A stretch of 64,000 nt of DNA from Sulfurimonas sp. (GCF_014859695.1 NZ_JACUTS010000005.1:4274-68273), one strand, 5' to 3'. Shown: positions 6,947 through 49,571, numbered from the stretch's first letter. The notes: a model not told the origin generated them from the sequence alone. Translations and numbers: made by a program.

Positions 6947-7468
6947 ATGAAGATTTTATTGATGCTTTTATCGTTGTCGGCATTTGCTTTTGGACATACG
7001 ACTTTTCTACAAAATAGCGGATTTAGCAGCGGATTTTTGCATCCAATGAGCGGTTTAGACCATGTTTTGGCTATGGTCGGTGTCGGAATAGTCGCTTTTT
7101 TTGCGCCAATGAGGGGCTATCTTCTTCTGTTTGCTTTTATAGCGGTTATGGTTGTCTCGGCAATACTGGGCTTCATTGGCGTTATGATACCTTTTGTCGA
7201 AGAGGGGATACTTATCTCCATTGCCGTTGTTTTTGCACTTATAGGTTTTGCAAAAAAGATATCTCTGAGCGCTATTGTCTCGGTAGTTGCATTTTTTGGT
7301 CTCTTTCATGGTTTTGCCCACGGAGCTGAATTTCAAAGCGGAAGTTTTGTAGCTTACATGTTGGGGTTTACTCTCTCCACGCTGTTTCTTCATTTAAGCG
7401 GTATCGCTTTGGCTTATGCATATACGAAAACTGTTTTGGTAAAACAAACGCAGAACGTAGAGCGATAA
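6947..7468 (+). CDS. hupE: HupE/UreJ family nickel transport membrane protein
   Basis: Signal peptide followed by the GFLHPMSGLDHVLAMVGVG signature. Polytopic, and sits immediately upstream of hypB. Confidence 0.8.
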   Translation: MKILLMLLSLSAFAFGHTTFLQNSGFSSGFLHPMSGLDHVLAMVGVGIVAFFAPMRGYLLLFAFIAVMVVSAILGFIGVMIPFVEEGILISIAVVFALIGFAKKISLSAIVSVVAFFGLFHGFAHGAEFQSGSFVAYMLGFTLSTLFLHLSGIALAYAYTKTVLVKQTQNVER

Positions 7469-7469
7469 C

Positions 7470-8216
7470 ATGTGCAAAGATTGCGGTTGCAGTGTTGTAG
7501 AACATAGTCATTCTCATAAAGAGAGCCATTCACATGAACATCTGCATGACAATCCACAGTTAAATGACCCTAAAACCATCTCTATAATTACAAAAATATT
7601 AGATAAAAATGACCATGAAGCTGGACATAACAGAGAACATTTTAACGCGCACGGAGTTCTTTGTATAAATCTGATGAGCAGCCCCGGAAGCGGAAAAACG
7701 GCACTTTTGGAGAGTTTGTCAGATTTGGGCGAGTTTAAATTTTGTGTCGTTGAGGGCGATTTGCAAACATGCAAAGATGTAGACAGGCTAAAAGCCAAAG
7801 GGATACAGGCTCATCAGATTCAAACAGGTTCGGCTTGTCATTTGGATGCATTTATGGTTCATAAAGCTCTGCACCACATGGATTTGGACAATATGGACGT
7901 ATGTTTTGTAGAGAATGTCGGAAACCTCGTCTGTCCTGCAAGCTATGATGTCGGAAGCCACTTAAATATAGTGCTTGTAAGTGTTCCAGAGGGCGAAGAC
8001 AAGATAGCAAAATATCCTGTTATGTTTCGTCAAGCCGATTTGATTCTTTTTACGAAAACAGACCTTCTTCCCTACTTTGAGTATGATATGAAAAAAGAGA
8101 AAGAGATGGCAAGAAAATTAAAACCAAACGTTGACATCCTAGAAGTTAGTACAAAAGATGAAGCATCATTAAGAAAAGTTTCTCAGTGGATTAAGTTTAA
8201 AATGGAGATGCGTTAG
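7470..8216 (+). CDS. hypB: hydrogenase nickel incorporation GTPase HypB
   Basis: N-terminal CxxCGC plus His-rich stretch (HSHSHKESHSHEHLH). GSGKT P-loop and ENVGNLVCPA motif. Confidence 0.95.
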   Translation: MCKDCGCSVVEHSHSHKESHSHEHLHDNPQLNDPKTISIITKILDKNDHEAGHNREHFNAHGVLCINLMSSPGSGKTALLESLSDLGEFKFCVVEGDLQTCKDVDRLKAKGIQAHQIQTGSACHLDAFMVHKALHHMDLDNMDVCFVENVGNLVCPASYDVGSHLNIVLVSVPEGEDKIAKYPVMFRQADLILFTKTDLLPYFEYDMKKEKEMARKLKPNVDILEVSTKDEASLRKVSQWIKFKMEMR

Positions 8217-8464
8217 TGTGCCTCTCCATTCCAAGCAAAGTGGTTAAAATAGATAAGCAAAACAGCGTAGCTACAGTCGATACTATGGGTGTTAAAAGAG
8301 AAGCAAGTTTGGCGCTTGTCGGCGAAGAGGATATAAAAATAGGCGATTACGTGCTTTTGCATATCGGTTTTGTAATGAGCAGGATCGATGAAGAAGAGGC
8401 ACTTCTTAGTCTTGAAGCATTTGCGAAAATAGTTGAGCTGATGGATGAGGAAGAACAGCTTTAA
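8216..8464 (+). CDS. hypC: hydrogenase assembly chaperone HypC/HupF
   Basis: 82 aa with the essential N-terminal MCLSIPSKV motif. GTG start abuts the hypB stop. Confidence 0.9.
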   Translation: MCLSIPSKVVKIDKQNSVATVDTMGVKREASLALVGEEDIKIGDYVLLHIGFVMSRIDEEEALLSLEAFAKIVELMDEEEQL

Positions 8465-9609
8465 TGAAGCAGTTAGAGCTTAAAAATCTTTATGATGACT
8501 TTAGAGATGCAGACACCATAAAAGCTTATGCAAGAATCATAAAAGAGGATGCGGCAAAGCTGAAAAATCCTATAAACATTATGGAAGTCTGCGGCGGACA
8601 TACGCATACCATCATGAAGTATGGACTTCTTCAGCTTCTGCCCTCAAATATCAAGTTTATCCACGGTCCGGGCTGTCCGGTTTGCATCATGCCAAAAGAG
8701 AGAATTGATCATGCCTATGTTTTGGCGATGCAGGAAGATGTGATATTGGTTACTCTAGGCGACATGATAAAAGTACCGGGAAGCAGAGGAACCCTTCAAG
8801 ATGCAAGAAGCAAAGGGGCAGATGTTCGTTTTGTCTATTCGCCCTTAGAGTGCCTAAAGATTGCAAAAGAGAATCCGACTAAAAAAGTCATCTTTTTTGC
8901 CATAGGATTTGAGACGACGACGCCGATGACTGCCGCACTTCTTGATGCGGTTATAAAGCAAAATATCAAAAACATCTTCTTTCACATAAACCATGTAACA
9001 GTACCCGAAGTTATGCGTGAGCTGATAGATAGCAGAGATATACATGTAGATAGCTACAACAACAAAATAGACGCATTTTTAGGGCCTTCACATGTAAGCG
9101 TGATAAGCGGAAGTAAAATCTATGAGGAGTTTCCAAGGGATTATAACCGTCCCGTGGTTGTCTCTGGTTTTGAGCCGGTTGATGTCATGCAGGCAATCAG
9201 CATGATAGTAAAACAGTTCATAGAGGGCAGATGCTCTCTTGAAGTGGAGTACAAACGGCTTGTGACTTATGATGGAAACGTCAAAGCACAGGAGCTTGTA
9301 AACAAGTATTTTGAAAAAACAGACCTGTTCAAATGGCGAGGTTTAGGCAATATCCCAAAAAGCGGAATGAAACTAAAACCTGAGTTCAAAGAGTACGATG
9401 CAGAAGTTATCTACAAAGATGTTCTCCCTCTCGGCGAAATAGAAGACCATAAACTCTGCATCTGCGGAGACATTTTAAGAGGTATGGCAAGCCCTCCGGA
9501 GTGTACGATTTTCGGCACTGCATGTAAACCGACTTCACCGATAGGAAGCTGTATGGTAAGCTCAGAGGGCGCGTGTGCGGCGTATTATAAGTATGGGAAT
9601 TTGGTATAA
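8464..9609 (+). CDS. hypD: hydrogenase Fe(CN)2CO scaffold protein HypD
   Basis: CGGHTH and GPGCPVC motifs, plus the C-terminal Cys cluster (CKPTSPIGSCMVSSEGACAAYY). Confidence 0.95.
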   Translation: MKQLELKNLYDDFRDADTIKAYARIIKEDAAKLKNPINIMEVCGGHTHTIMKYGLLQLLPSNIKFIHGPGCPVCIMPKERIDHAYVLAMQEDVILVTLGDMIKVPGSRGTLQDARSKGADVRFVYSPLECLKIAKENPTKKVIFFAIGFETTTPMTAALLDAVIKQNIKNIFFHINHVTVPEVMRELIDSRDIHVDSYNNKIDAFLGPSHVSVISGSKIYEEFPRDYNRPVVVSGFEPVDVMQAISMIVKQFIEGRCSLEVEYKRLVTYDGNVKAQELVNKYFEKTDLFKWRGLGNIPKSGMKLKPEFKEYDAEVIYKDVLPLGEIEDHKLCICGDILRGMASPPECTIFGTACKPTSPIGSCMVSSEGACAAYYKYGNLV

Positions 9610-9709: not shown

Positions 9710-9979
9710 ATGCAGACAATAAATTTAAAAATAGATGATACTTTTTTTCCACATTTTAAGGCTATTTTAGAGAGTTTTGTAAAAGACAAAAAAGTTGAAA
9801 TTATCCAAGATGATGATTTTGACTTTGAAAACAACTATCCAAAAAATGCGGTTGTAAGCAGTGTAGAAGATGTAAGAAAAAGAGTTTTTGAAGCTGAAAA
9901 AGAGATAGGCTTAAACGAAGATCAATACAACAAGTTGATGGATAAGTTTTTTACCGAAGAACTCGGCATCAAGCGATGA
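9710..9979 (+). CDS. putative type II antitoxin (family not recognised)
   Basis: 89-aa acidic protein whose stop overlaps the start of the ParE/RelE-like toxin gene by 4 nt (ATGA). The call rests on position only. Confidence 0.4.
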   Translation: MQTINLKIDDTFFPHFKAILESFVKDKKVEIIQDDDFDFENNYPKNAVVSSVEDVRKRVFEAEKEIGLNEDQYNKLMDKFFTEELGIKR

Positions 9980-10248
9980 TGATAGAAAAAAAGCCAAAGT
10001 ATATCTATGGCGTGATGAATATTCTCGGTTTTATTAAAAATGACAAGCCCCTCGCTGCAAAGAAATTTGAAAATAAACTAAACAAACGAATTGATAACTT
10101 AATACATTTTCCCCTTAAACATAGAAAATCCATCTATTTTAATGATGAAAATTATAGAGATTTGATTTATCATGGCTATACAGTCATCTATAAAATAGAG
10201 AGTGAAAAAATTTTAATACTTGATATTTTTAAATGGCAAGTGAGATAA
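9976..10248 (+). CDS. ParE/RelE-superfamily type II toxin
   Basis: 90 aa. The pattern ...FIKNDKPLAAKKFENKLNKRIDNLIHFPLKHRK...YRDLIYHGYTVIYKIESEKILILDIFKW matches the ParE-type plasmid-stabilisation toxin layout. Confidence 0.6.
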   Translation: MMIEKKPKYIYGVMNILGFIKNDKPLAAKKFENKLNKRIDNLIHFPLKHRKSIYFNDENYRDLIYHGYTVIYKIESEKILILDIFKWQVR

Positions 10249-10256
10249 AAATTTAA

Positions 10257-11396
10257 ATGAAAAACACAATCTATGAATATAGCGAAGTAGAGGATGAAAA
10301 GCTAAAAAAGTACATTATAGATACTCCTCTGCTTCATAAATATTTTAAACTTGATTGGAATATTTTAAAATCGCAGCAATATTGCGGCATACTAAACTTT
10401 GGAGATGAAGACTACTATCTGCTTCCAAAGATAAGTGAAAATAGTGATGAAAAAAATCTTGATATTTTTATCTACATGTTGATGTACGCTTACGATATAA
10501 AGCTTGAAGCCGAAGATATAGCTTCATGCAAAAATGAAAAACATAACATCTTGGAAGTTTTTATACAGATGTTTGCAAGTAACTTATTTAAAGAGTTTAA
10601 GCGAGGTGTTTATAGAGAGTACATCACAGAACAAGATAACTTGACGACTTTAAGAGGAAAATATCTCATAAATAAAAATCTAAAGTTCAATCATATAAAA
10701 AACAAGATTTACTGCGAATATGATGAGTTTAGCATGGATAATCAACTAAACCAATTCTTTTTATACGCTGTTAAAACATTATTAAAATACACAAAAAATA
10801 AAAAGCTTTTAAAACAGTGTGAGTTGGTACTTGATGAGGCAGAGTATAAAACTTTTGATATAAATAATCTACATGTACATTTTAATAGACTAAACAATAG
10901 GTTTAAAGATAGTTTTGAGTTTGCACTTTTGCTATTAAACAAATCTATTCCGCTCTTTGCAAAAGATAAAAAGAGTTTTGCATTTTTGTTTGACATGAAT
11001 GTGCTTTTTGAGAGATTTGTCGGCAAGATGATAAAAGAGCTTGAAGCCGCAACACTGCTTCAAAGTTGTGATACATACGGAGATTTAATTTTAAAACCTG
11101 ATATTATTGTAAAAGATTTGATAATTGACACCAAATATAAAAAGCTTGGCGCAAAAAATGAGATAAAAAGAGACGACAAGTTTCAGATGTTCGTTTATGG
11201 AAAAAACTATAATATAGCAAATACAATGCTTCTCTATCCGAAACATCTGGAGCATTTTGATTATGATTTGGTTTTAGGGGAAAAGGGCGAGGAAGTAAAA
11301 ATGAAGATAAAGAGTTTGGATTTGTGGTTTGATGGGTGCGGATATGATGAGTTTGTTGAAGAAATTAAAATTAAAGTCAAGGAATTGTCATGTTAG
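10257..11396 (+). CDS. mcrC: McrC-like PD-(D/E)xK endonuclease subunit of a McrBC-type restriction system
   Basis: 379 aa. C-terminal nuclease core LKPDIIVKDLIIDTKYKKL (D...D/ExK). Overlaps the McrB-like GTPase gene by 7 nt. Confidence 0.75.
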   Translation: MKNTIYEYSEVEDEKLKKYIIDTPLLHKYFKLDWNILKSQQYCGILNFGDEDYYLLPKISENSDEKNLDIFIYMLMYAYDIKLEAEDIASCKNEKHNILEVFIQMFASNLFKEFKRGVYREYITEQDNLTTLRGKYLINKNLKFNHIKNKIYCEYDEFSMDNQLNQFFLYAVKTLLKYTKNKKLLKQCELVLDEAEYKTFDINNLHVHFNRLNNRFKDSFEFALLLLNKSIPLFAKDKKSFAFLFDMNVLFERFVGKMIKELEAATLLQSCDTYGDLILKPDIIVKDLIIDTKYKKLGAKNEIKRDDKFQMFVYGKNYNIANTMLLYPKHLEHFDYDLVLGEKGEEVKMKIKSLDLWFDGCGYDEFVEEIKIKVKELSC

Positions 11397-12742
11397 ATTT
11401 AGAAAATTTTAGAAGATATTTAGAAGATATTGGATTTGGTGCTATACAAAATTACATTGCATATTTAAACTCGTTAATTAATATATTAAATCAAATTGAT
11501 GAATATCAAGCATTAAATGACCAAGATAAAGTAGTTAAATTTGCTAATGCAAATAATGAATTCAAAAATGAATTTGATCAACACCATAACTACGCTAATA
11601 ATAGCACATTTAATGATTTTAGAAGTGGCGCTAGAAAATATGTAAAGTTTTTACAATATTTTACAATTATGAATACGATGCAAGAATATGATGAAGATAA
11701 TTCTAGCTTTGATTTAAATGGTGCGTATATGTTTTTTAAAGTATTTGATGATGTGAACTCTTACCCTATAAAAGCTATATGTAAAAAAATCCAAAATAAT
11801 TTAGAGTTAGAAGAAAATTTTACTACAAATGATGCAAAAGGCAAGTTAAGAGATATATTTAATGAACAAAATATTCAATTTTTTGACAATAGAAATGAAA
11901 ATCCAATTGAGCCAGTTCAAAATCTAAAAATCAAAAATATAATCCTCTACGGTGCACCTGGAGTTGGAAAAACTCATAACTATAAAAAAATTGTGGCACT
12001 TATTGAGGGTGGTGATTTTTTAGAAAATAAAATTTTTGATTTTATTATCAATAATAAAGATGATGAAATTGAAGAAGGCAGTATTGATAGATTATTTAAA
12101 CAAGTTAAAGATGAGAAACGAGTCGAGTTTATAGCATTTCATCAAAGCTACTCTTATGAGGATTTTATAGAGGGTTTTAGACCGAGTGTGAGCGGAAATA
12201 TTGAGCTAAAAGATGGAATATTTAAAAAATTATGTAGTGATGCAGAAAAATCTGATAAAAACTTCTACATAGTTATAGACGAAATAAACAGAGGAAATAT
12301 TTCTAAAATCTTTGGAGAACTTATCACACTCATTGAAGAAGATAAAAGAGATGTTTATGAAGTAACGCTTCCGTACTCAAAAGAGAAGTTTAAAGTACCC
12401 TCAAATCTTTATATCATAGCTACTATGAACTCTACTGACAAGTCTATCGCTACTATCGACATAGCTCTAAGACGAAGATTTACATTTTTAAAGATGAAGC
12501 CAAATGAAGATTTGATTTCACATGTAAAGGCGAAGGAGCTGTTTAATAGCCTAAATAAATTTATAAAAGATAATCTAAATGAAGATTACATGTTAGGGCA
12601 TAGCTATTTTATGAATATACAAAACAGTGAAGATTTAAAATTTGTCAAAGAGTATAAAATCAAGCCGCTTTTAGAAGAGTATTTTTATGCAGATGATGAA
12701 AATTATAACAAAGCGGAAGGTATATTAAATAAATATGACTAA
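11390..12742 (+). CDS. mcrB: McrB-like AAA+ GTPase subunit with an unrecognised ~180-aa N-terminal domain
   Basis: Walker A GAPGVGKTH, FHQSYSYEDFIEGFRP, Walker B/signature VIDEINRGNISKIFGELITLIEE, GTP-specificity-like MNSTDKS, and ALRRRF. Confidence 0.85.
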   Translation: MLDLENFRRYLEDIGFGAIQNYIAYLNSLINILNQIDEYQALNDQDKVVKFANANNEFKNEFDQHHNYANNSTFNDFRSGARKYVKFLQYFTIMNTMQEYDEDNSSFDLNGAYMFFKVFDDVNSYPIKAICKKIQNNLELEENFTTNDAKGKLRDIFNEQNIQFFDNRNENPIEPVQNLKIKNIILYGAPGVGKTHNYKKIVALIEGGDFLENKIFDFIINNKDDEIEEGSIDRLFKQVKDEKRVEFIAFHQSYSYEDFIEGFRPSVSGNIELKDGIFKKLCSDAEKSDKNFYIVIDEINRGNISKIFGELITLIEEDKRDVYEVTLPYSKEKFKVPSNLYIIATMNSTDKSIATIDIALRRRFTFLKMKPNEDLISHVKAKELFNSLNKFIKDNLNEDYMLGHSYFMNIQNSEDLKFVKEYKIKPLLEEYFYADDENYNKAEGILNKYD

Positions 12743-13733
12743 AACAATAACATTATCACACGGTAACGGCGGGCAAGAGAACAACGAACTTATCTCTAAG
12801 GTTTTTTATAAGGCTTTTAAAAACGACATCCTCGACAAAAGCGAAGATGCGGCTATTATCCATAACGGGGAGTTGGCGTTTTCTACCGACAGTTTTACGG
12901 TTTCGCCTCTGTTCTTTGCGGGAGCGGACATCGGAAAGCTTGCGGTTTGCGGTACATGTAACGACCTTGCCATGATGGGAGCGAAACCGAAATATTTGAC
13001 ATGTAGCGTGATTATTGAAGAGGGTTTCCAGATGAGAGACTTAGAGAGAATCGTGCGAAGTATGAAAAAAGAGCTTGAGATTAATGGTGCGATTATAGTG
13101 AGCGGAGACACCAAGGTTGTGCCTCGCGGAAGTGTCGATAAGATTTTCATAAACACTACGGGAATCGGCGAAGTTTTGAAAAAGGGCATCAGCTCCAACA
13201 ACATAACAAAAGATGATGTCATCATACTAAACCGTGATATCGGCTGTCACGGTGCGGCTATCTTTGTAGCTCGTGAGGGCATCGAGATGAGCAGTTCTTT
13301 GCAGAGCGATTGTGAATCGCTTTATCCTCAGGTGAAGGCTCTTTTGGACGCAGACATAAAGATAACGGCTATGAGAGATGCGACTAGAGGCGGAGTGAGT
13401 GCAGTGCTAAATGAGTGGTCGAGGCAGTCAGATATCTGTATAGAAGTGCAAGAGGAGAGTATTCCCGTTAGCGATGAGGTAAAGGGTATCTGTGAGATGC
13501 TCGGTTTTGAAGCGACGGCTTTGGCGAATGAGGGTACTTTTGTTTTGGCGGTAAATCATGATGATGCCCAAAAAGCGGTAGAGATTTTAAAAACTTTTGA
13601 GAGTTGCAAAAATGCAGCGATAATCGGCAAAGTAACGGATACGCATCTAAAAAAAGTCATCTTAAAGAGCAGTTGGGGAACTTCAAGATTTTTAGATACG
13701 CCAAGCGGCGAGTTGCTTCCAAGGATTTGCTAA
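12735..13733 (+). CDS. hypE: hydrogenase maturation carbamoyl dehydratase HypE
   Basis: N-terminal ITLSHGNGG, AIR-synthase-like fold motifs and the invariant C-terminal PRIC. Its ATG overlaps the mcrB stop (ATGACTAA). Confidence 0.95.
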   Translation: MTKTITLSHGNGGQENNELISKVFYKAFKNDILDKSEDAAIIHNGELAFSTDSFTVSPLFFAGADIGKLAVCGTCNDLAMMGAKPKYLTCSVIIEEGFQMRDLERIVRSMKKELEINGAIIVSGDTKVVPRGSVDKIFINTTGIGEVLKKGISSNNITKDDVIILNRDIGCHGAAIFVAREGIEMSSSLQSDCESLYPQVKALLDADIKITAMRDATRGGVSAVLNEWSRQSDICIEVQEESIPVSDEVKGICEMLGFEATALANEGTFVLAVNHDDAQKAVEILKTFESCKNAAIIGKVTDTHLKKVILKSSWGTSRFLDTPSGELLPRIC

Positions 13734-13737
13734 AGTT

Positions 13738-15426
13738 ATGAAAATACTTCTTATCGTTTCGGCATTTAACTCTCTTACGCAAAGAGTTTTTTGTGAGCTT
13801 CAAGATATGAATCATGCAGTATCGGTGCAGTATGCCATAAGCAATGAGGCGATGATGCAAAGTGTTGACGCGTTTGCGCCAGATATCATCTTTTGCCCTT
13901 ATCTCAAAAAATACCTCCCATGTGAGATATTTCTAAAAACCCCCACTTTTATTCTCCATCCCGGCATAAGAGGAGACAGAGGACACAACGCGCTCGACCA
14001 TGCCTTGCGGGACAATAAAAAAGAGTGGGGAGTAGTCATTCTAAAAGCAAACGAAGAGTTTGACGGCGGAGATATATACGCCGAAGTCAGGTTTGAGATG
14101 AGAGATGCGACAAAGGCTTCCATATACAGAAACGAAGTCGCAGATGCCGCCTCAAAAGCGTTAAAAGAGCTGCTTAAAAATTTGGACGACAAAGAGTTCA
14201 AACCCACTCCTCAACTCAAAATGCCGATGCATAATTACTTAACGCAAAAAGAGAGAGCCATTAACTGGGAAAAAGAGACTGCTCAAGAGATTATAAAAAA
14301 GATACATGTAAGCGATAGTTTTCCCGGTGTTAAAGATGAGTTTTTGGGAATAGAGTGTTATCTTTTTGGAGCTTGGGAAGAAGATAAACTCAAAGGCAAT
14401 CCAAAAGAGATAATCGCCAAAAGAGACGGTGCTGTTTGCGTCGGCACGATTGACGGGGCAATCTGGATAAGTCACATGTCAGAAGTCGGCAGGTTCAAAC
14501 TTCCCTCAACCTATGTTTTAAAAGATAAAATCAAAGGCGTTAAAGAAGAGCGGCTTCCTCTTATTTTTGACATGAGTTATAAAACATTTTACGAAATCAG
14601 CTCCCATAAAGACGGCGAAGTCGGGTATCTCTATTTTAACTTTCACAACGGTGCTATGCATTCTGAGCAGTGCATCAGGCTAAAGTATGCGTTTGAGTAT
14701 CTGAAAGAGAGTTGCAAGGTTATAGTTTTAATGGGCGGAGCGGATTTTTTTAGCAACGGGATACATCTCAACATACTCGAAGATTCTCAAAAGCAGGGAG
14801 AAGACGGCTGGAGCAACATAAATGCTATGAATGATGTCGTAAAGTCAATCATATTCGCAGATGATGTAATCACGGTTGCATCTCTGCATAAAAATGCCGG
14901 AGCAGGCGGAGTATTTCTAGCTTTGGCATGTGATTATGTTGTTGCACGAAAAGGAGTTGTTTTGAACCCTCACTATAAAACTTTGGGGCTGAGCGGAAGC
15001 GAATATCATACATTTACACTGCCCAAAAGAGTAGGTGCGCACAAGTCAAAAGAGCTGTTGGAGAGCTGTTTGCCGATAAATGCCGCTAAAGCGAAAGAGA
15101 TAAATATGGTGGATGAGGTTTTTGAAAAAGAGAACTATTTTGAGCAATTAAGAAGTTTTGCCAATAAACTGGCAAATGCGCAAGACGAGTATGATGATTT
15201 TATATATGAAAAAGAGGATTATCTGCAAAAAAACAGAGAGTTTATAAATGAGTGCAAAGAGAATGAACTAAAGACGATGCATCCGGAATTTTGGGATAAA
15301 GAGAGTTCGTTTCACAGGCTGAGACATGATTTTGTTTATAAAGTCTGCTCAATTGAAACACCTCAGAGATTGAAATCGTACCGGTACGATGGGCTTCCTG
15401 CCGAAGGAAACTCAGCGTTAGCGTAG
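13738..15426 (+). CDS. hypX: HypX/HoxX-type hydrogenase maturation factor (formyltransferase-like N-domain + crotonase-like C-domain)
   Basis: 562 aa. N-terminal MKILLIVSAFNSLTQRV resembles HoxX/Fmt. The C-terminal half has an enoyl-CoA hydratase-like G-rich oxyanion segment (NAGAGGVFLALACD). Lies between hypE and hypA. Confidence 0.8.
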   Translation: MKILLIVSAFNSLTQRVFCELQDMNHAVSVQYAISNEAMMQSVDAFAPDIIFCPYLKKYLPCEIFLKTPTFILHPGIRGDRGHNALDHALRDNKKEWGVVILKANEEFDGGDIYAEVRFEMRDATKASIYRNEVADAASKALKELLKNLDDKEFKPTPQLKMPMHNYLTQKERAINWEKETAQEIIKKIHVSDSFPGVKDEFLGIECYLFGAWEEDKLKGNPKEIIAKRDGAVCVGTIDGAIWISHMSEVGRFKLPSTYVLKDKIKGVKEERLPLIFDMSYKTFYEISSHKDGEVGYLYFNFHNGAMHSEQCIRLKYAFEYLKESCKVIVLMGGADFFSNGIHLNILEDSQKQGEDGWSNINAMNDVVKSIIFADDVITVASLHKNAGAGGVFLALACDYVVARKGVVLNPHYKTLGLSGSEYHTFTLPKRVGAHKSKELLESCLPINAAKAKEINMVDEVFEKENYFEQLRSFANKLANAQDEYDDFIYEKEDYLQKNREFINECKENELKTMHPEFWDKESSFHRLRHDFVYKVCSIETPQRLKSYRYDGLPAEGNSALA

Positions 15427-15429
15427 GTA
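15391..15429 (+). repeat. 39-nt dispersed repeat, copy A (partner at 40552-40590, inverted)
   Basis: gggcttcctgccgaaggaaactcagcgttagcgtaggta matches the reverse complement of 40552-40590 at 32/39 positions, including an exact 13-mer. It overlaps the last codons of hypX. Confidence 0.65.
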
Positions 15430-15460
15430 GCGGAATTACTTCCGATACCGTTATATAATA

Positions 15461-15480
15461 AATAAAGGGTTCCCTTTATT
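15461..15480 (+). terminator. rho-independent terminator-like hairpin after hypX
   Basis: aataaaggg-tt-ccctttatt forms a perfect 9-bp stem, followed by T-rich ttatg. Confidence 0.45.
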
Positions 15481-15507
15481 TTATGAAATAAAATTAAGGG
15501 AGTATAG

Positions 15508-15849
15508 ATGCATGAGTATAGTATAGTCCAGTCGCTTTTGGATTCATGTGAAGAGAATGCCGTAAAAAACAACGCCACAAAAGTAACTAAAGTCGTAGTA
15601 AAAATCGGCGTTATGAGCGGAGTCGAACCTGAGCTTTTAAAAACCGCATTTGAGACATTTAAAGAGAAGACACTTTGTGAAGAGGCGGAGTTTGTTATAA
15701 ACATCCAGCAAATCGTTATAAAATGCAACAAATGTTTAAACGAATCAGTTTTAGAGAGCATGGAGTACTATTGCCCTAGATGTAAAGATGCGGATATCGA
15801 GATTCTTGATGGTGAAGATATGTACCTGATGCAGTTAGAACTTGAGTAG
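15508..15849 (+). CDS. hypA: hydrogenase nickel insertion metallochaperone HypA
   Basis: N-terminal MHEYSI nickel site and two CxxC zinc motifs (CNKC ... CPRC). 113 aa. Confidence 0.9.
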
Positions 15850-16003
15850 ATGAGTAAAAAAAATGTAGATTAGCGTAAAATAGTTTTTTATTTTTCACAT
15901 ATTTTTTAGCAGAAATAAATATAATATTTATGAATAGTTTAATATTTAAAATTGTACTATGCAGTAAAGTTTATTTTAATTTTGTTGTTTAAAGGGGTGT
16001 TGA

Positions 16004-17557
16004 ATGAGCGAAAGAAAGATTACTATAGACCCGCTTACAAGGATAGAGGGGCATCTTAAATTTGAGACAATAATCAAAGACGGGGTTGTTACGGAGGCGA
16101 AATGTTCCGCAGAGATGTACAGAGGAATTGAGAAGGCGCTTATAGGCTACGATGCCAGAGTTGCACAGCAAGTAGCTCAGAGAGTTTGCGGTGTTTGTCC
16201 TTATGCACACGCCGAAGCTGCCTCTCTTGCGCTTGAAAACGCTATGGGAATAAAGCCAAATCATAACGGACAGCTACTGAGAAATATGATTGTCGGCGCT
16301 TATCAGCTCCAAGACCATCTTTTACATTTTTATGTTTTAAGTGCGCTGGATTTTATCGATATAACCGCGGTGTTAAAATATGAGGGGGATGATGAGAGCG
16401 TCCTTAGTGTAAAAACATGGGTTCAAAACGAGCTCAAAAGCAACAAGATATTTCCTGCAGCCCCTTTTTTGCCACGCTATGAAGCGATGTATGCAAAAGG
16501 AAACAACACCAACTTTACGGCAATCAAAAACTACTTAGAAGCTATTAAGGTTATGGCCGATTTGACAAAAGCCGTTGCAATCTTCGGGGCAAAAGCGCCG
16601 CACTCTGTAACACTTGAAGCAGGCGGCGTGACAACGATTCCCACCGTCGGAAAACTTGCAAAGTACAGATCTTTAGTAACAAGTGCTAAAAATTTTATAA
16701 AAAATAACTACATAAACGACATTATCGCCGTAGCAAAAGAGTTTCCTGAGTACTTTAAAATAGGTGCAGGATACGGAGACTACCTCTCTTACCCATACTT
16801 GCCTGATGAAAACGGGGAAAATCATCTTTTTGTAGGCGGCTCGACGATTGATGGCAAGTATGAAGAGCTTGATTTGAAAAACATCTTTGAGGACCATAAA
16901 TACTCCTACTACAAAAACAAACCCGACTCCAACGTAAGACCTCTTGACTCTAAGGTGCTTACACCCATAGATTATGAAGAGTTTAAAGAGGAGCAGAAAA
17001 AAGAGGACGGAAAATACAGCTGGTCGAGAGCGCCTCGTTACAAAGGCAAAATCATGGAGGTCGGTCCGGTTGCAAGAGTTATAAACACTTATAAAAGCGG
17101 TAAAAACAAAAAACTAAACGCTCTTGTGGATTCTGTAAATAAAAAATTGGGACTTACGTTTAAAGAGTATAACTCTGTTTTGGGAAGGCATCTCTGTAGG
17201 GCTTTTATGGCATTTAGCATCATTGATAAAATCCTAGAAGATACGGAAAAAGTGATTCCCGATGAGCTTGCGTTTGTTGAGAGAGATGTTCCCAAAAATG
17301 CTGTTGGATTTGGACTTACCGAAGCAACAAGAGGAGCTTTGGCGCACTGGATAGAGACTGATGAGAGTGGTTTTATAAAAAACTATGACATGATCGTACC
17401 CACAACTTGGAATATCTCGCCAAAAGATGCAAGCGGAGTTCCCGGAGCTGTAGAGAAGATGCTTATAGGAACGAAAATCAAAGACCCCGACAACCCGATA
17501 GAGTTGGCAAGAATAGTGAGATCTACAGATCCATGTCTTGCATGCTCGGTTCATTAA
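16004..17557 (+). CDS. [NiFe]-hydrogenase large subunit, no C-terminal processing extension
   Basis: RIEGH, RVCGVCP (N-terminal Ni ligands) and DPCLACSVH (C-terminal Ni ligands). The ORF stops immediately after the His. 517 aa. Confidence 0.95.
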   Translation: MSERKITIDPLTRIEGHLKFETIIKDGVVTEAKCSAEMYRGIEKALIGYDARVAQQVAQRVCGVCPYAHAEAASLALENAMGIKPNHNGQLLRNMIVGAYQLQDHLLHFYVLSALDFIDITAVLKYEGDDESVLSVKTWVQNELKSNKIFPAAPFLPRYEAMYAKGNNTNFTAIKNYLEAIKVMADLTKAVAIFGAKAPHSVTLEAGGVTTIPTVGKLAKYRSLVTSAKNFIKNNYINDIIAVAKEFPEYFKIGAGYGDYLSYPYLPDENGENHLFVGGSTIDGKYEELDLKNIFEDHKYSYYKNKPDSNVRPLDSKVLTPIDYEEFKEEQKKEDGKYSWSRAPRYKGKIMEVGPVARVINTYKSGKNKKLNALVDSVNKKLGLTFKEYNSVLGRHLCRAFMAFSIIDKILEDTEKVIPDELAFVERDVPKNAVGFGLTEATRGALAHWIETDESGFIKNYDMIVPTTWNISPKDASGVPGAVEKMLIGTKIKDPDNPIELARIVRSTDPCLACSVH

Positions 17558-17567
17558 GGAGTAGCGG

Positions 17568-18515
17568 ATGGATTTTATAACTAGAAGAGAAGCTATTAAG
17601 CGGATGATGAGGGTGATAGCGGCTGTGGGTGCTGCGAACTTTTTTAGCTATAGCGACTTGCTTGCTATGGAAAACGGAAAAATGATAAAGCCAAATATAA
17701 TTTGGCTGCATGGCTCCTCATGTTCGGGCTGTTCTTGCTCTTTTTTAAACATTGAAGATGTCTCCGTGCTTGATATTCTCACTAGATATACAAATGTAAT
17801 CTATCATCCTGATGTCTCATTGGCAACAGGAAAGCAGGTTGTTGACTTGTTGGATAAAGCTTCAAAAGAGTTAAAAGATAACTACCTTTTTGTAGTGGAA
17901 GGTTCCATTCCCGTGGCAATGCCTCATGCCTGTATGATGGGCGATAGACCTATTATGGAGTGGATGGAGCAGATGAGCAACAGTGCTTCTGCATGTGTTG
18001 CGGCTGGAACATGTGCTGCATTTGGAGGTATTACGGGAATGCAGGGCATGGATGCGGGTGTAATGTCTGTTGGCAAATTTAACAAACATAAAAACATAAA
18101 CAAACCTGTAGTATCTCTGCCAAATTGCCCCATGAAGCCTGAACACTTAATTTATGTCATTTTTCATTATGCAAAATTCAGAACCATTCCTGAGCTTGAT
18201 GCAGAGGGAAGACCGCTTAGATTTTTCTCTCAAACCGTTCATGAGAGGTGTATATACTACTCTGAGTTTCAAGAGAAAAACTATGCAAAAAAAATCGGTC
18301 AAGCAGGCTGTCTGCTTAAGCTCGGTTGTCAAGGACCCGTTACGAAAAATGATTGTATGACGATTGGACACAATAACAACACAAATACATGTATAAAAGC
18401 GGGTCATCCATGTATAGGGTGTGCAAGCGAGCATTTTCCAAGGCAGATTATGCTTCATACTTTCAAGGACGAAAGAGCCATTGAAAAGTTTAAACATTTT
18501 AAGTTTAGGGGATAA
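17568..18515 (+). CDS. [NiFe]-hydrogenase small subunit with Tat-like N-terminal leader, no membrane anchor
   Basis: Leader is MDFITRREAIKRMM..AANFF..LLA. Fe-S ligand motifs: WLHGSSCSGCSCS, GTCAAFGG, LPNCP, HERCIYY, CLLKLGCQGPVTKNDC and HPCIGCASEHF. Confidence 0.9.
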   Translation: MDFITRREAIKRMMRVIAAVGAANFFSYSDLLAMENGKMIKPNIIWLHGSSCSGCSCSFLNIEDVSVLDILTRYTNVIYHPDVSLATGKQVVDLLDKASKELKDNYLFVVEGSIPVAMPHACMMGDRPIMEWMEQMSNSASACVAAGTCAAFGGITGMQGMDAGVMSVGKFNKHKNINKPVVSLPNCPMKPEHLIYVIFHYAKFRTIPELDAEGRPLRFFSQTVHERCIYYSEFQEKNYAKKIGQAGCLLKLGCQGPVTKNDCMTIGHNNNTNTCIKAGHPCIGCASEHFPRQIMLHTFKDERAIEKFKHFKFRG

Positions 18516-18518
18516 ATC

Positions 18519-20318
18519 ATGCAAAGGAGAAACTTTTTTGAAACCATCTTGTTTAAACTCTCTTTCCCTCTAGTTTTTAGTGTTGTAGCTATCTCTATAA
18601 TCTCTATAACACTCAACTACCATCTTCAAAAGCAAAAACTTGAGGAGATGATAGAGGATAAAGGGTCTGCTATTTTACATAACTATATTGTCTCCTCAAG
18701 AGACTCTCTTGCACGAGGTCAGCGCAAGACATTTCAATCCGCCATGGACAATATAGCACTTCTAGAGGGTGTGGAGGATACTGTTTTATATGCATCTTCA
18801 GGACTTATGAACTATAAGTCAAAAGAGGTGACGGTCGGAAAACCGTTTGTTCATAAAGAGGGTAGCTTTTACAATCCAAACAAAGAGATTTATGAACAAA
18901 CAAATGGGATGTATCTGCGAACAGACTGGAGTGATAAACCGCTTGAAGAGTCGGCGGGGTTTCATGGAAGCACTTTAATGGATAAAGAGAAGAAATGCAG
19001 CAGTTGCCACTTTGAAATTGACAGAGATTTGGAGTTTATCGACAACAGAGCCTATAAAATTGATGAAGCAGGCGATACATCTACCTTTTATGAAAAGATT
19101 ATTGCTGAGAAAGGGTGTATCGCATGCCATACAAACTGGAAAGAGGGCGGTGTTTCCGGTTATCTCGGAGTAAGTATCTCAAACAAAAAGATGAGCGATC
19201 AAGTGAAAGACAACATGTGGAACTTTACGCTCACGCTTGTTACGCTTGCATTTATAATAATCGTTATTGCTCTTATCGTCTCTTTAAAGTTTAAAAGAAA
19301 GCTGCAGCTTTTACTAGAGGGAATTAAAAATCTCAATGAAAAAAAGGGTTCACGCATAGAGATTAAAGAGAATGATGAGATTAAAGATATCGCCGGGGAG
19401 TTTAATCGCTATATAAAAAACATGGAAGATGGAGTAGTTCAAGATAATAAACTTATTGCCAATCTCTCCGATGTTGCCTCTGAGACAGCCAAAGGAGACA
19501 TGACAAAAAGAGTTGCAGTAGAAGCAAACAGTGAGTCTCTCAATAGGCTCAAAGAGATTGTCAACTCTATGCTTGATGCCATGAATACAAATATCCAAAA
19601 AGTGCTTGAAGTGCTTAAGAGCTATGAAAATGATAACTTTAAAGCGACAATAGAAGTAGCCGGTACTACAGGAAGAGTCAAAGAACTTTTTGAGAGCACA
19701 AATAGTCTTGGAAGAGCGCTCTCAAACGCAAGCAGACAGGAGTTTGAGGATGGAAACAATCTTGAAGAGCAGTCTCTTAAACTCTCTGAAAACATGACAT
19801 TGCTAACAGCTTCAGCGCAGGATCAGGCACAAAAACTCAAAGATACTTCAGAAATAATGGAGTCTATTACAGTGGCAATAAATGAGATTGTTCATAGAAC
19901 CAATGACGTAGTAAGCCAATCTGAGGATATAAAATCAGCAATAAGTATTATTCGAGATATTGCAGACCAGACCAATCTTTTGGCACTTAACGCAGCCATA
20001 GAGGCAGCGCGGGCAGGAGAGCATGGACGCGGCTTTGCCGTAGTTGCAGGCGAGGTAACAAATCTTGCTGAAAAAACACAAAAAAGTCTTAATGAGATTA
20101 CCGCAACAGTGGGTATCATGACAGGTTCTATCAATGAGGTAAGTTCTACAATGCAGGAGCAGTCCCAAGCAGTCTCAAGTATTAATGATACAATTAGCGC
20201 TCTTGAAGAGACAACACAAAAAAATGCAGATAATGCAAAAGAGGTAAGCGAGATAGTAACGCAAACCAAAGAGATGGCGGAACGCTTTGTTTACAATGCT
20301 AAATCTAAAGAGTTTTAG
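18519..20318 (+). CDS. methyl-accepting chemotaxis protein with a periplasmic sensor domain carrying two CXXCH heme-c motifs
   Basis: TM1 ~aa 13-33, ~200-aa periplasmic region with CSSCH (aa 160-164) and CIACH (aa 200-204), TM2 ~aa 234-257, a HAMP-like linker, and the conserved signalling hairpin [27 protein letters not shown]. Confidence 0.9.
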
Positions 20319-33982: not shown

Positions 33983-35233
33983 TTGAAAATAATAATTTCA
34001 TTTTTAATAACTATAACTTTTATGTTTGCAAGTGACGCGACAATAGAGGTTATTAAAAAAGTTGATTCACTTCCTTCACTGGCGATTGAAGATGCCTCTA
34101 CTAGTTATGATGATACTTTTAGAAATAGATTTTTTAAATCTTTAGTAGCGGATTTAAATGTTCTTTCAATCTTTAATGTAGAGAGAGCTCATCGTAAAGT
34201 TAACTATGATGCAAGCAGCGTATTGGTAGAAAACAAAGATATGAACTATGTTTTAAGATATAAGCTAAGCGAAGATGACTCGCGTGCGTTAAATTTAGAG
34301 CTCAAACTGATAAGCCAAGAGAAGATTATATTTAACAAAAACTATAAAGTTAACAATACGAACGTATATATGTTTGTTTCTCATACCATAGCATACGATA
34401 TAAATAAATTTATGGGCGAGGCGCCTGTTGAGTGGATGAAGAGAAAAGTCATCTTCTCAAGAATGGTTGACCCTCAAAAAAGCGAGTTGGTTATTGCAGA
34501 TTATACTCTGACATATCAACATGTTGTTGTTAAAGGCGGTTTTAACATATTCCCAAAATGGGCAAATAAAGAGCAGACAGCCTTTTACTACAGCTCTTTA
34601 GATGAGAAAGTGCCTACATTAAAGTATGTAGATATTAAAACCGGAAAAAGCAGTGTTATAAAATCTTCAGATGGCATGATGATATGTTCTGATGTTAATG
34701 ATGATGGCAGCAAGCTTCTTTTGACTATGGCACCGCAGGGTCAGCCGGATATCTATCTGTATGATGTTAAAACAAAAAGTACGAAAAAACTGACAACTTT
34801 TGGCGGCATAGATGTAGGCGCGCAGTTTTTAGGCAGTGACAGCATTGTATTTGTCTCTGACCGTTTAGGATATCCAAATATATTTTCTAAAAATTTGAGC
34901 ACAGGAAGTGTTGAACAGATGGTCTATTACGGCAAAAGCAATGCTGCTTGTAGCGTGTTCGGACAGTATATAGTTTATAAAGCAAGAGAGAGTTCTGAGT
35001 CATTCGGAGATAATACATTCAACCTTCATTTAATATCTATGGGGACGGATTTTATAAGAAGATTGACTGCTGTTGGAGTAAATGAGTTTCCTAGATTTTC
35101 TGTAGATGGAGACGCAATAATTTTTATTAAGAACTATAAGTCCCAAAGTTCTATAGGAATAATTAGAGTAAATCATAATAAAAATTATCTATTTCCTTTG
35201 AAGTATGGAAAAGTACAGTCAATGGATTGGTAA
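33983..35233 (+). CDS. tolB: Tol-Pal system beta-propeller protein TolB
   Basis: Signal peptide, N-terminal alpha/beta domain and repeated propeller blades (..PDIYLYD.., FSVDGD..). TTG start. Confidence 0.9.
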   Translation: MKIIISFLITITFMFASDATIEVIKKVDSLPSLAIEDASTSYDDTFRNRFFKSLVADLNVLSIFNVERAHRKVNYDASSVLVENKDMNYVLRYKLSEDDSRALNLELKLISQEKIIFNKNYKVNNTNVYMFVSHTIAYDINKFMGEAPVEWMKRKVIFSRMVDPQKSELVIADYTLTYQHVVVKGGFNIFPKWANKEQTAFYYSSLDEKVPTLKYVDIKTGKSSVIKSSDGMMICSDVNDDGSKLLLTMAPQGQPDIYLYDVKTKSTKKLTTFGGIDVGAQFLGSDSIVFVSDRLGYPNIFSKNLSTGSVEQMVYYGKSNAACSVFGQYIVYKARESSESFGDNTFNLHLISMGTDFIRRLTAVGVNEFPRFSVDGDAIIFIKNYKSQSSIGIIRVNHNKNYLFPLKYGKVQSMDW

Positions 35234-42723: not shown

Positions 42724-42752
42724 AAAGATATAGGAGAGACTCCTATATCTTT
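42724..42752. terminator. bidirectional terminator hairpin between convergent yebC and ctsF-like genes
   Basis: aaagatataggag-aga-ctcctatatcttt forms a perfect 13-bp stem with a 3-nt loop. It overlaps the stop codon of the minus-strand gene. Confidence 0.6.
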
Positions 42753-45731: not shown

Positions 45732-45741
45732 AATGCCCCCT

Positions 45742-49562: not shown

Positions 49563-49571
49563 GAATCTGCC

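Follow-up and report, generated by a model that had tools for sequence, protein, structure and literature searches.

Three co-directional genes in a 64,000-nucleotide stretch of Sulfurimonas sp. DNA, the whole of which is termed the window, encode the large and small subunits of a [NiFe]-hydrogenase and a transmembrane chemoreceptor (MCP), and they probably form a periplasmic H2-sensing module in which H2 oxidation reduces haems on the receptor and the haem redox state controls signalling, with taxis as the output in Sulfurimonas. Judged from its sequences, the trio is most likely an undescribed bacterial way of sensing hydrogen gas, and no published description of such a hydrogenase-dihaem receptor module was found. 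An earlier note on this DNA had proposed the chemoreceptor as the dedicated partner of the hydrogenase in a candidate H2-taxis module, which is supported by conserved adjacency of the genes in both search directions. A mechanism is added here to that idea, with enzyme and sensor sharing the periplasm and the sensor carrying two predicted haem-c sites.

Gene organization and the upstream hyp cluster

Re-calling of open reading frames on the + strand places the large subunit at 16004-17557 (517 amino acids), the small subunit at 17568-18515 (315 amino acids) and the MCP at 18519-20318 (599 amino acids), exactly the coordinates and strand given in the earlier note. Both junctions described there were read directly, the first being a 10-nucleotide spacer with an AAGGAG box overlapping the large-subunit stop codon and the second a 3-nucleotide spacer with AGGGGA ahead of it, and a GGGG Shine-Dalgarno-like box lies just 5' of the large-subunit ATG. 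The spacing of the genes suggests a single transcription unit. The AT-rich gap that precedes them (15850-16003, + strand, 154 nucleotides, G+C ~31%) was also found as described; it is the likely promoter region and contains TATAAT at 15920-15925. The consensus scan called no + strand promoter within the gap, and its promoter and terminator counts were close to those of shuffled controls and uninformative. The distance from the MCP stop codon to rplU is ~200 nucleotides, again as noted before, and a domain search of the three proteins agreed that they contain no cytochrome b, diaphorase, endopeptidase, HoxJ-type kinase or GGDEF/EAL domain.

The self-contained unit described earlier is not an isolated one, its three genes coming last in a hyp maturation cluster. 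The first part of the cluster (6947-9609, + strand, Pfam matches PF04955, PF02492 and PF01924) comprises hupE/ureJ (6947-7468), hypB (7470-8216), hypC (8216-8464, with the N terminus read as MCLSIPSKV) and hypD (8464-9609). The second part (12735-15849, + strand) lies directly 5' of the hydrogenase and is composed of hypE (12735-13733, TIGR02124, 452 bits), a hypX-like formyltransferase/enoyl-CoA-hydratase fusion (13738-15426, PF00551, PF02911 and PF00378) and hypA (15508-15849, PF01155 and TIGR00100). No che genes are present within the window. The upstream hyp genes, the Tat signal, the missing large-subunit tail and the two CxxCH motifs of the MCP are observations beyond the earlier note.

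The hydrogenase and its export

The large subunit (PF00374, 460 bits) has an L1 motif, R13-I-E15-G-H17, that forms an invariant set of columns in the clade alignment, and the Ni ligands C62/C65 and C511/C514 are likewise invariant. The translation shows a cysteine rather than a selenocysteine as the active-site residue, and the L2 motif is STDPCLACSVH. The protein terminates at H517, the last nickel-site histidine, with no C-terminal extension. The extension is absent from all 37 complete large subunits of the clade, which end DPCxAC[SA]VH-stop, and a tail of 15-16 amino acids is present in all 38 of the nearest outgroup enzymes. Lacking an extension, the enzyme would need no endopeptidase, and no endopeptidase gene is conserved across the hydrogenase-sensor loci. 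As the tail is also missing in regulatory hydrogenases, its absence throughout the clade is counted in favor of a sensing role.

The small subunit (PF01058 and PF14720) begins with a Tat signal (residues 1-33, nucleotides 17568-17666, + strand) in which TRREAIK, with the twin arginines R6R7 at nucleotides 17583-17588, precedes a hydrophobic region and an LLA site. All 35 small subunits of the family keep the RR motif, and the Sulfurimonas subunit has no hydrophobic stretch that could serve as a membrane anchor. By this signal the hydrogenase is a Tat-exported, periplasmic enzyme and therefore group 1-like rather than group 2. Alignment to 2wpn_A predicts the ligands of the proximal cluster (C52/C55/C149/C187) and the distal cluster (H225/C228/C248/C254); the predicted medial ligands are C263/C275/C282/C285, four cysteines as in NiFeSe-type enzymes.

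The best PDB matches of the large subunit are group 1a/1b enzymes (~300-310 bits), and the closest solved structures are the periplasmic NiFe(Se) enzymes of Desulfovibrio and Desulfomicrobium (1e3d and 5jsu, E ~1e-91; 2wpn_A, E 1e-47). Mycobacterial Hydrogenase-2 (Huc, 7uus/7utd), which we take to be group 2a, matches at ~183 bits. Sequence kinship thus appears nearest to group 1, a placement based on PDB matches and not a formal HydDB classification. The comparison previously drawn with the cytoplasmic group 2b and 2c sensors is replaced by one with the periplasmic group 1a/1b enzymes, of which this is a Tat-exported relative.

The gas channel of the Ralstonia H2 sensor is narrowed by Ile/Phe, and standard catalytic enzymes have Val/Leu. 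The corresponding residues V64 (CGVC motif) and L112 (HFYVL), placed by motif and numbering offset without a reference alignment, look standard-type, and by these offsets the Ralstonia narrowing appears to be absent. Together with a complete active site and three complete sets of cluster ligands, these residues favor a reading in which the protein chiefly conserves energy as a periplasmic uptake enzyme supplying a soluble cytochrome c pool, the receptor sampling the flux for general energy or redox taxis. The position of the hyp genes, including hypX, directly upstream points the same way, as does the description of an apparently similar enzyme as a soluble periplasmic uptake hydrogenase in the 2009 Nautilia genome paper. 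Relatives without the sensor add to this case. These are Sulfurospirillum sp. 1612, Sulfurospirillum BB15 and Halarcobacter, together a sister sub-branch in which one operon encodes both the hydrogenase and a molybdopterin oxidoreductase that is exported by Tat, indicating that the clade can serve metabolic electron delivery and that the Sulfurimonas enzyme might also be respiratory. Against this stand the loss of the large-subunit tail, which parallels regulatory hydrogenases, and the gene content of the hydrogenase-sensor loci, where conservation is limited to the three genes and does not extend to a cytochrome, a quinone-reducing subunit or any other acceptor. The intact sensor domain, moreover, occurs almost only beside the hydrogenase, a restriction that would be needless for a general redox sensor. 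A mainly respiratory enzyme is considered an unlikely alternative to dedicated H2 sensing.

The dihaem sensor domain and its conserved linkage

The MCP (PF00015 MCPsignal, 114 bits, cut-off 34.6) has only two hydrophobic stretches, at approximately residues 6-36 and 232-262, which are taken as TM1 and TM2; the AF2 model places helices at residues 6-65 and 223-261. A HAMP region (nucleotides 19455-19583, + strand) scores 23.3 bits, under the cut-off of 25, and the signalling domain (nucleotides 19848-20276, + strand) retains an intact hairpin tip, read over 25 residues, so that the receptor looks functional. Between the hydrophobic stretches lies the sensor domain (residues 35-235, nucleotides 18621-19223, + strand), which no Pfam model covers. 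It contains two CxxCH motifs, CSSCH at residues 160-164 (nucleotides 18996-19010, + strand) and CIACH at residues 200-204 (nucleotides 19116-19130, + strand), which are predicted haem-c attachment sites. Neither varies across 34 genome orthologues and 50 further cluster representatives, and both stay invariant among sensors at ~30% identity. Haem attachment at CxxCH takes place in the periplasm; this and the location of the domain between the only two hydrophobic stretches would put it in the same compartment as the Tat-exported hydrogenase. Candidate distal haem ligands are M97, which is nearly invariant, and H149, which is only partly conserved.

The AF2 model of the domain (pLDDT 85.7, pTM 0.79) has a predicted Cache/PAS-like (PDC) fold, with Foldseek matches to the sensor domains of WalK, KinD, PctD, CitA and DctB. 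The Geobacter haem-c sensors 3b42 and 3b47 are weak Foldseek matches (E 0.06-0.3), and neither was returned by a PDB-sequence profile search at E up to 10. The two-haem segment matches cytochrome c3 and Hmc marginally in sequence over residues 149-213, and a match to c7 is equally marginal.

Large subunits of this type form a discrete clade, with identities of at least 53% inside it and no more than 39% to the next relatives. The dihaem sensor gene is adjacent in 36/38 informative species-level genomes that carry the hydrogenase clade. The reverse search, a scan of metagenomes with a profile of the sensor domain, found 48 loci, 42 of which were informative in having upstream DNA present; the large and small subunit genes are immediately 5' of the sensor gene in 39 of the 42, and the three exceptions represent one truncated remnant of 201 amino acids. 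The linkage spans five phyla (Campylobacterota, Gammaproteobacteria, Desulfobacterota, SAR324 and Chrysiogenota). A survey of this kind had been named in the earlier note as a means of refuting its own proposal, which emerges from it intact. Distance matrices of the large subunit, small subunit and sensor correlate (r = 0.83-0.93), and the three are co-inherited.

Chance proximity of an ordinary uptake hydrogenase and an unrelated chemoreceptor gene might be entertained given the number of MCP genes in Campylobacterota, and within the window spacing is the sole evidence for a pairing. The adjacency seen forward and in reverse across five phyla is far beyond chance and contradicts it, and the invariance of two CxxCH motifs in divergent sensors and the retention of the sensor while its output domain is swapped add to the difficulty, making coincidence very improbable.

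The outputs fused to the dihaem sensor domain are MCP; GGDEF; Hpt/HATPase_c (CheA-like) with CheX and CheY; HisKA-HATPase-REC-REC-Hpt; and a SAR324 type. The kinases of other lineages sit in the membrane as fusions to this periplasmic dihaem domain, and in the large-subunit tree a GGDEF version branches within the MCP versions. The identity of the partner requires qualification: it is an MCP in Sulfurimonas, as had been stated, but what is conserved as partner across lineages is the dihaem sensor domain, with an MCP, GGDEF, CheA-like or hybrid histidine kinase output depending on lineage. Interchangeable output domains are typical of sensory input modules, and one input domain with several outputs fits such a module.

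A larger mono-haem sister family shares the CxRCHxxW motif and has MCP or GGDEF-EAL outputs, and the added first haem site is specific to the hydrogenase-linked family. The sister family gives some weight to another explanation, in which an oxidant or a gas ligand (O2, NO, CO or sulphide) is what the haems detect and the hydrogenase is only a reset reductase keeping the haem iron ferrous, with H2 as a cofactor and not the signal. The haem-c PAS chemoreceptors of Geobacter and DcrA of Desulfovibrio, which have been proposed as redox or ligand sensors, are in keeping with it. A dedicated nickel enzyme would, however, be a costly haem reductant, the extra first haem is a better fit to electron entry than to a ligand site, and the output would still depend on H2. 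Ligand sensing is improbable.

For the preferred H2-sensing module, the adjacent Hyp proteins would mature the large and small subunits with no proteolytic step, and the folded dimer would be exported via Tat by means of the signal peptide on the small subunit. H2 would be oxidised by the enzyme in the periplasm and electrons would pass through the three iron-sulphur clusters to the two c-type haems of the Cache-like domain, which would take the role that cytochrome c3 has for Desulfovibrio hydrogenases. The redox (or ligand) state of the haems would depend on how the supply of H2 balances their re-oxidation, for which periplasmic oxidants would be responsible. TM2 and HAMP would relay this state to the signalling tip of the MCP, from which it would reach CheA and give taxis in H2 gradients in Sulfurimonas. 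Other lineages would couple this input module to a hybrid histidine kinase, to c-di-GMP synthesis, or to a CheA-like kinase that is membrane-bound and accompanied by CheX and CheY.

Comparison with known systems

The enzyme combines traits of different hydrogenase groups. The N- and C-terminal CxxC Ni motifs, the Tat signal and the closest relatives are those of group 1, and the C-terminal extension that an endopeptidase removes in group 1 is missing from a protein ending at H517. A large subunit without this extension is a group 2b trait; the conserved Tat signal is at odds with the cytoplasmic location of group 2b, and the adjacent gene encodes the MCP with its periplasmic dihaem domain in place of a HoxJ/HupT-type PAS histidine kinase. 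Group 2c enzymes are cytosolic and have the L2 consensus SFDxCLVCTVH in HydDB (PMC4853749), neither of which applies to this exported enzyme.

HoxBC/HupUV with HoxJ/HupT (group 2b) are similar as enzyme-coupled sensors in which a hydrogenase is dedicated to an adjacently encoded signalling partner, and the large subunit lacks the extension in both. They differ in being cytoplasmic group 2 enzymes without a Tat signal, whereas the present enzyme is exported and groups with 1a/1b; in a partner that is a cytoplasmic PAS kinase and not a periplasmic dihaem domain; in the gas channel, which is probably of the standard Val/Leu type here; and in outputs, which here include chemotaxis.

A c-type cytochrome is the natural acceptor of the periplasmic Desulfovibrio and Desulfomicrobium hydrogenases. 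These [NiFe]/[NiFeSe] enzymes (group 1a/1b) with cytochrome c3 resemble the present system in the Tat signal, the soluble periplasmic heterodimer without a membrane anchor, the four-Cys medial cluster (NiFeSe) and, putatively, a c-type haem acceptor. The clade is only ~35-39% identical to its nearest genomic relatives, and it differs from the Desulfovibrio type in the gene order (large then small subunit), the absence of the C-terminal extension, an active-site cysteine rather than selenocysteine, and acceptor haems that would reside within a signalling receptor and not a soluble electron carrier.

Geobacter GSU0582/GSU0935 (PDB codes 3b47/3b42) and Desulfovibrio DcrA are likewise MCPs with CxxCH in a PAS/PDC-like periplasmic domain. 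Their domains have one haem in ~130 residues compared with two haem sites in ~200 residues here, and we know of no hydrogenase linkage for these receptors. Group 2c [NiFe] and [FeFe] group C2 hydrogenases are, similarly, putative H2 sensors proposed from linkage to c-di-GMP enzymes or MCPs. The putatively chemotactic group C2 consists of [FeFe] enzymes of an unrelated fold, and neither group has the haem-c relay proposed for the Sulfurimonas module.

Organization of the hydrogenase-receptor locus

The three genes of the trio lie on the + strand in the order [NiFe]-hydrogenase large subunit (16004-17557; PF00374, 460 bits), small subunit (17568-18515; PF01058 and PF14720) and methyl-accepting chemotaxis protein (MCP) (18519-20318; PF00015, 114 bits, with HAMP slightly below the cut-off). 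These are exactly the positions proposed in the earlier note, and direct reading of the sequence confirms the 10- and 3-nt spacers and the purine-rich boxes it described, together with the 154-nt gap upstream of the large subunit gene (~31% G+C) and the distance of ~200 nt from the MCP stop to rplU. The upstream gap contains a TATAAT at 15920-15925. A simple scan of the window for promoters and terminators gave counts near those of shuffled controls, and therefore the assignment of the trio to a single transcription unit, which is plausible, is drawn from the spacing only. Rfam returned zero matches across the whole window with the flanking gaps included, and a regulatory RNA in these gaps was rejected on that basis. 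An identical MCP is on deposit under the Sulfurimonas name, and the nearest genomic loci are Sulfurimonas metagenome-assembled genomes.

The trio forms the end of a hyp maturation cluster, overlooked in the earlier note, with the order hupE, hypB, hypC, hypD, then hypE, a hypX-like gene and hypA. The gene between hypE and hypA (13738-15426) encodes a HypX/HoxX-like fusion of N- and C-terminal formyltransferase domains with an enoyl-CoA hydratase. HypX provides the CO ligand under oxic conditions, and its presence here is a hint that oxygen may be available during maturation of the hydrogenase. The hyp cluster is split between hypD and hypE by a small defence islet (9710-12742) composed of two short ORFs of 89 and 90 amino acids (9710-10248), which we guess to be a toxin-antitoxin pair, followed by McrC-like (10257-11396; PF10117) and McrB-like (11390-12742; AAA_5) restriction genes. 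Elsewhere in the window two longer ORFs have no Pfam match at E <= 0.001, one of 416 amino acids (33983-35233, + strand) and one of 540 amino acids (50686-52308, - strand), the latter adjoining a cluster of secretin and type II/IV secretion ATPase genes (42751-50689).

Export, processing and classification of the hydrogenase

Translation of the small subunit gene gives the N terminus MDFITRREAIKRMMRVIAAVGAANFFSYSDLLA, a twin-arginine (Tat) signal that places the enzyme in the periplasm, and a reading of hydrophobic stretches found no C-terminal anchor. The large subunit terminates in ...DPCLACSVH followed directly by the stop codon, so it has no C-terminal extension. Neither terminus had been remarked upon in the earlier note. 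Both features extend throughout the clade, defined as the hydrogenases whose large subunits group with the window copy, with the RR motif kept in every small subunit and every complete large subunit terminating at the histidine. Because a C-terminal tail of 15-16 residues is retained in all 38 of the nearest enzymes outside the clade, loss of the proteolytic maturation step is, as judged from these sequences, a derived trait of the clade; the cytoplasmic regulatory hydrogenases likewise lack this step. In a Tat-exported enzyme that has no such extension, the cleavage normally serving as a checkpoint before the subunits assemble and are exported cannot apply, which presents a maturation puzzle as to how such an enzyme is proof-read.

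The nearest solved structures are the periplasmic [NiFe] and [NiFeSe] enzymes of Desulfovibrio and Desulfomicrobium (E ~1e-91 for the large and ~1e-47 for the small subunit), for which cytochrome c3 is the natural acceptor. The match to Hydrogenase-2/Huc, which we take as group 2a, is far weaker at ~183 bits compared with ~310 bits. A scan using one genome per species recovered 41 loci whose large subunits are 53-96% identical. Beyond these, identity falls to 39% or less, and the hydrogenase forms a discrete clade related to the periplasmic enzymes of group 1. All clade large subunits retain the nickel ligands, the RIEGH motif and a conserved arginine. In the small subunit the ligands of all three clusters are complete, the medial site having four Cys like that of NiFeSe-type enzymes, so that the enzyme seems capable of catalysis. 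Assignment as a NiFeSe enzyme was rejected because cysteine rather than selenocysteine occupies the active site, and the NCBIfam scores for this identity are below their cut-offs. Membership of HydDB group 2c, which is cytosolic with the L2 consensus SFDxCLVCTVH (PMC4853749), is ruled out by the L2 motif and the Tat signal.

The dihaem sensor domain, its linkage and its outputs

Only two stretches of the MCP are hydrophobic (residues 6-36 and 232-262), and the domain of ~200 residues between them contains two CxxCH motifs, CSSCH (160-164) and CIACH (200-204), also overlooked in the earlier note, each of which would attach a haem. An AlphaFold2 model of the sensor built with 21 orthologues from database proteins is confident (pLDDT 85.7, pTM 0.79) and consists of a long helix at the N terminus, a sheet of five strands and a helix that leads back into TM2. 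Foldseek matched this fold to the extracytoplasmic PDC/Cache sensors WalK, KinD, PctD, CitA and DctB and, weakly, to the Geobacter haem-c chemoreceptor domains (PDB codes 3b42 and 3b47). No Pfam model covers the region, which is defined here as a new, putatively haem-c, Cache-type sensor domain. Within the two-haem segment Pfam gives only sub-threshold matches, to the families of cytochrome c3, c7 and MtrC, and a PDB profile search places marginal matches (E ~0.04) there to the high-molecular-weight cytochrome as well as to cytochrome c3. In the window proteins the periplasmic domain is acidic (net charge -6) and the mature small subunit basic (+5), which is compatible with electrostatic docking of the two, although charge is weak evidence.

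A profile search run exhaustively over 1.84 billion representatives yielded only 57 clusters at E <= 1e-30, and all 50 of the full-length ones checked have both CxxCH motifs ~40 residues apart. A larger and more distant set (proteins P0298-P0386), also Cache-like and outside any Pfam model for the domain, has only the second motif (DC[IV]RCHxxW..G..GG.L) with the first-haem insert absent, and carries MCP, MCP-CZB or GGDEF-EAL outputs. The hydrogenase-linked family thus looks like a Cache sensor that had a single haem and acquired another, and this acquired haem, the first in the sequence, may be the point of electron entry. A word-indexed protein search with residues 1-262 alone returned no match despite identical and 90% identical full-length entries in the database; since negatives of this search are untrustworthy for short, divergent domains, the full MCP and the exhaustive profile search were used instead.

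In 36 of the 38 species genomes in which the contig continues, the small subunit gene adjoins a gene whose product has a homologous N-terminal domain, both CxxCH motifs included. The sensor gene is on the opposite strand in two loci (L019 and L022) and in the second of these lies upstream of the large subunit gene. In the reverse direction the sensor-domain profile recovered 48 metagenome loci, and the large and small subunit genes are immediately upstream in 39 of the 42 with upstream DNA. The remaining three (L122, L123 and L126) represent one truncated dihaem copy of 201 amino acids (L122, 4965-5570), probably a decaying remnant, which has neither the first transmembrane helix nor an output and sits among the housekeeping genes dapF, mdh and sucC with no hydrogenase nearby. 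All-against-all clustering shows that only the three trio genes are conserved across loci. Carriers include Sulfurimonas, Arcobacteraceae, Sulfurospirillum and Nautiliaceae (Campylobacterota), Thiocystis, Sedimenticola, Methylococcaceae and Halorhodospira (Gammaproteobacteria), as well as Desulfurivibrionaceae, Geobacteraceae, SAR324 and the Chrysiogenota (Desulfurispira natronophila), with several cultured strains among them, such as Sedimenticola selenatireducens DSM 17993, Thiocystis violacea DSM 208, Thiocystis minor DSM 178 and Desulfurivibrio dismutans AMeS2. The neighbourhood survey of orthologues thus bears out the predicted linkage, and the counts in both directions contradict a chance adjacency of hydrogenase and receptor, which is effectively excluded. 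The proposal that a chemoreceptor is the dedicated partner of the enzyme holds as regards adjacency, but the conserved partner is the dihaem sensor domain and not the MCP.

The domain is fused to MCP signalling domains in some carriers and to a GGDEF diguanylate cyclase in others (L021 by Pfam and seven further metagenome loci by tblastn). Classification by tblastn missed the gammaproteobacterial MCPs and left 19 loci as other or unknown; ten of ten re-tested proteins have MCPsignal and HAMP by Pfam. A hybrid kinase output (HisKA-HATPase-REC-REC-Hpt) also occurs and SAR324 has a distinct output. In the Desulfurivibrionaceae the domain is carried by a membrane-bound CheA-like kinase of ~775 amino acids (Hpt...HATPase_c) followed by CheX and a CheY-like single-domain receiver (L024, 6252-9513; L039, 9509-12773). 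It is unusual for a CheA-type kinase to span the membrane and carry a periplasmic sensor of its own. A role for the dihaem protein as a quinone-reducing membrane anchor was rejected, as it has only two poorly conserved transmembrane helices and the cytoplasmic part is always a signalling domain. A neighbor-joining tree of the large subunits places the GGDEF version within the MCP versions, and the distance matrices for the two subunits and the sensor are correlated (r = 0.83-0.93). These observations therefore point to joint inheritance of the three genes with swapping of the output, the pattern by which sensory input modules are usually recognized.

A candidate H2-sensing module and its relation to known systems

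We consider it probable that the trio constitutes a periplasmic H2-sensing module with a haem-redox relay to the signalling output. The periplasmic hydrogenase would oxidize H2 and pass electrons through its three clusters to the receptor haems, the redox state of which would be set by H2 supply against re-oxidation and passed on through TM2 and HAMP as far as the signalling tip. The consequence in Sulfurimonas would be a bias of CheA and, with it, taxis in H2 gradients. Computational evidence covers the gene anatomy, the compartment, the fold, the conserved linkage and the exchange of outputs, and the attachment of haem, the transfer of electrons between the proteins and the behavior are inferences from it. 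The same arrangement could operate as a reset, in which the haems sense an oxidant or a gas and the hydrogenase merely keeps them reduced, a reading we regard as very unlikely.

A sub-branch of the clade that has no sensor bears on a further alternative, in which the enzyme serves chiefly in respiration and its electron flux is sampled by the receptor. In Sulfurospirillum sp. 1612 (L134, CP140614.1, 2850-10485), Sulfurospirillum BB15 and Halarcobacter the hydrogenase forms the tail of a metabolic operon (L013, 1827-9485; L031, 1824-9475) encoding a DsbB-like membrane protein of 502 amino acids, a Tat molybdopterin oxidoreductase (773 amino acids), a 4Fe-4S subunit (187 amino acids) and a NarJ/TorD-like chaperone. 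The operon has no cytochrome at the three loci, and the pairing may serve to reduce an oxyanion or polysulfide with H2 in the periplasm. A two-component system adjoins the operon. This sub-branch favors a dual use of the enzyme, which we nevertheless judge unlikely.

Vents, sediments, groundwater and the gut are all settings in which H2 serves as a major energy currency. To our knowledge, taxis toward H2 is reported only as a behavior, in a methanogen, and the openly searchable full-text literature yielded no bacterial receptor steering cells toward H2. The sensing module is a specific, testable candidate for such a receptor, with a plausible physical mechanism in the relay of electrons from enzyme to haem. 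The sensory hydrogenases known so far, [NiFe] enzymes of groups 2b/2c and [FeFe] enzymes of group C, are cytoplasmic; if the proposal is true, they extend to the periplasm and to group-1-like enzymes. A wider claim, to which we give an even chance, is that of a new class of gas sensor in which a Tat-exported, protease-independent [NiFe]-hydrogenase delivers electrons directly to the dihaem Cache-like domain of membrane transducers and so converts periplasmic H2 into a redox signal. Spread as a three-gene cassette over at least five phyla, with chemotaxis, c-di-GMP, CheA-like and two-component outputs, the module would give bacterial hydrogen taxis its first molecular receptor and the periplasm its first H2 sensor. 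In environmental genomics the trio hydrogenase genes are probably counted as uptake hydrogenases and may be sensors.

The earlier note knew of no experimental description of a hydrogenase-chemoreceptor sensor, and likewise no description of a hydrogenase paired with a haem chemoreceptor was found in the openly searchable full text. HydDB lists only groups 2b (kinase-linked) and 2c (cyclase-linked) as [NiFe] sensors, besides a putative chemotactic [FeFe] group C2. A 2025 neighbourhood survey names MCPsignal among the neighbours of [NiFe] hydrogenases with no comment, and the 2009 Nautilia genome paper annotates an apparently similar enzyme as a soluble periplasmic uptake hydrogenase.

The pairing resembles the HoxBC-HoxJ H2 sensor in coupling an enzyme to a transducer and in the absence of large-subunit processing, and differs from this group 2b system in having a Tat signal and a group-1-like sequence and in lacking a HoxJ-type kinase. 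When positions are assigned by motif and numbering offset, the gas-channel residues V64 and L112 may be of the standard Val/Leu type and not the narrowed Ile/Phe type. As an enzyme it would, by sequence, belong with the periplasmic group 1a/1b hydrogenases, but these have C-terminal processing and a soluble cytochrome partner, and the window enzyme has neither. The receptor is similar in concept and fold class to the Geobacter haem-c PAS chemoreceptors, though not in sequence or in the number of haems.
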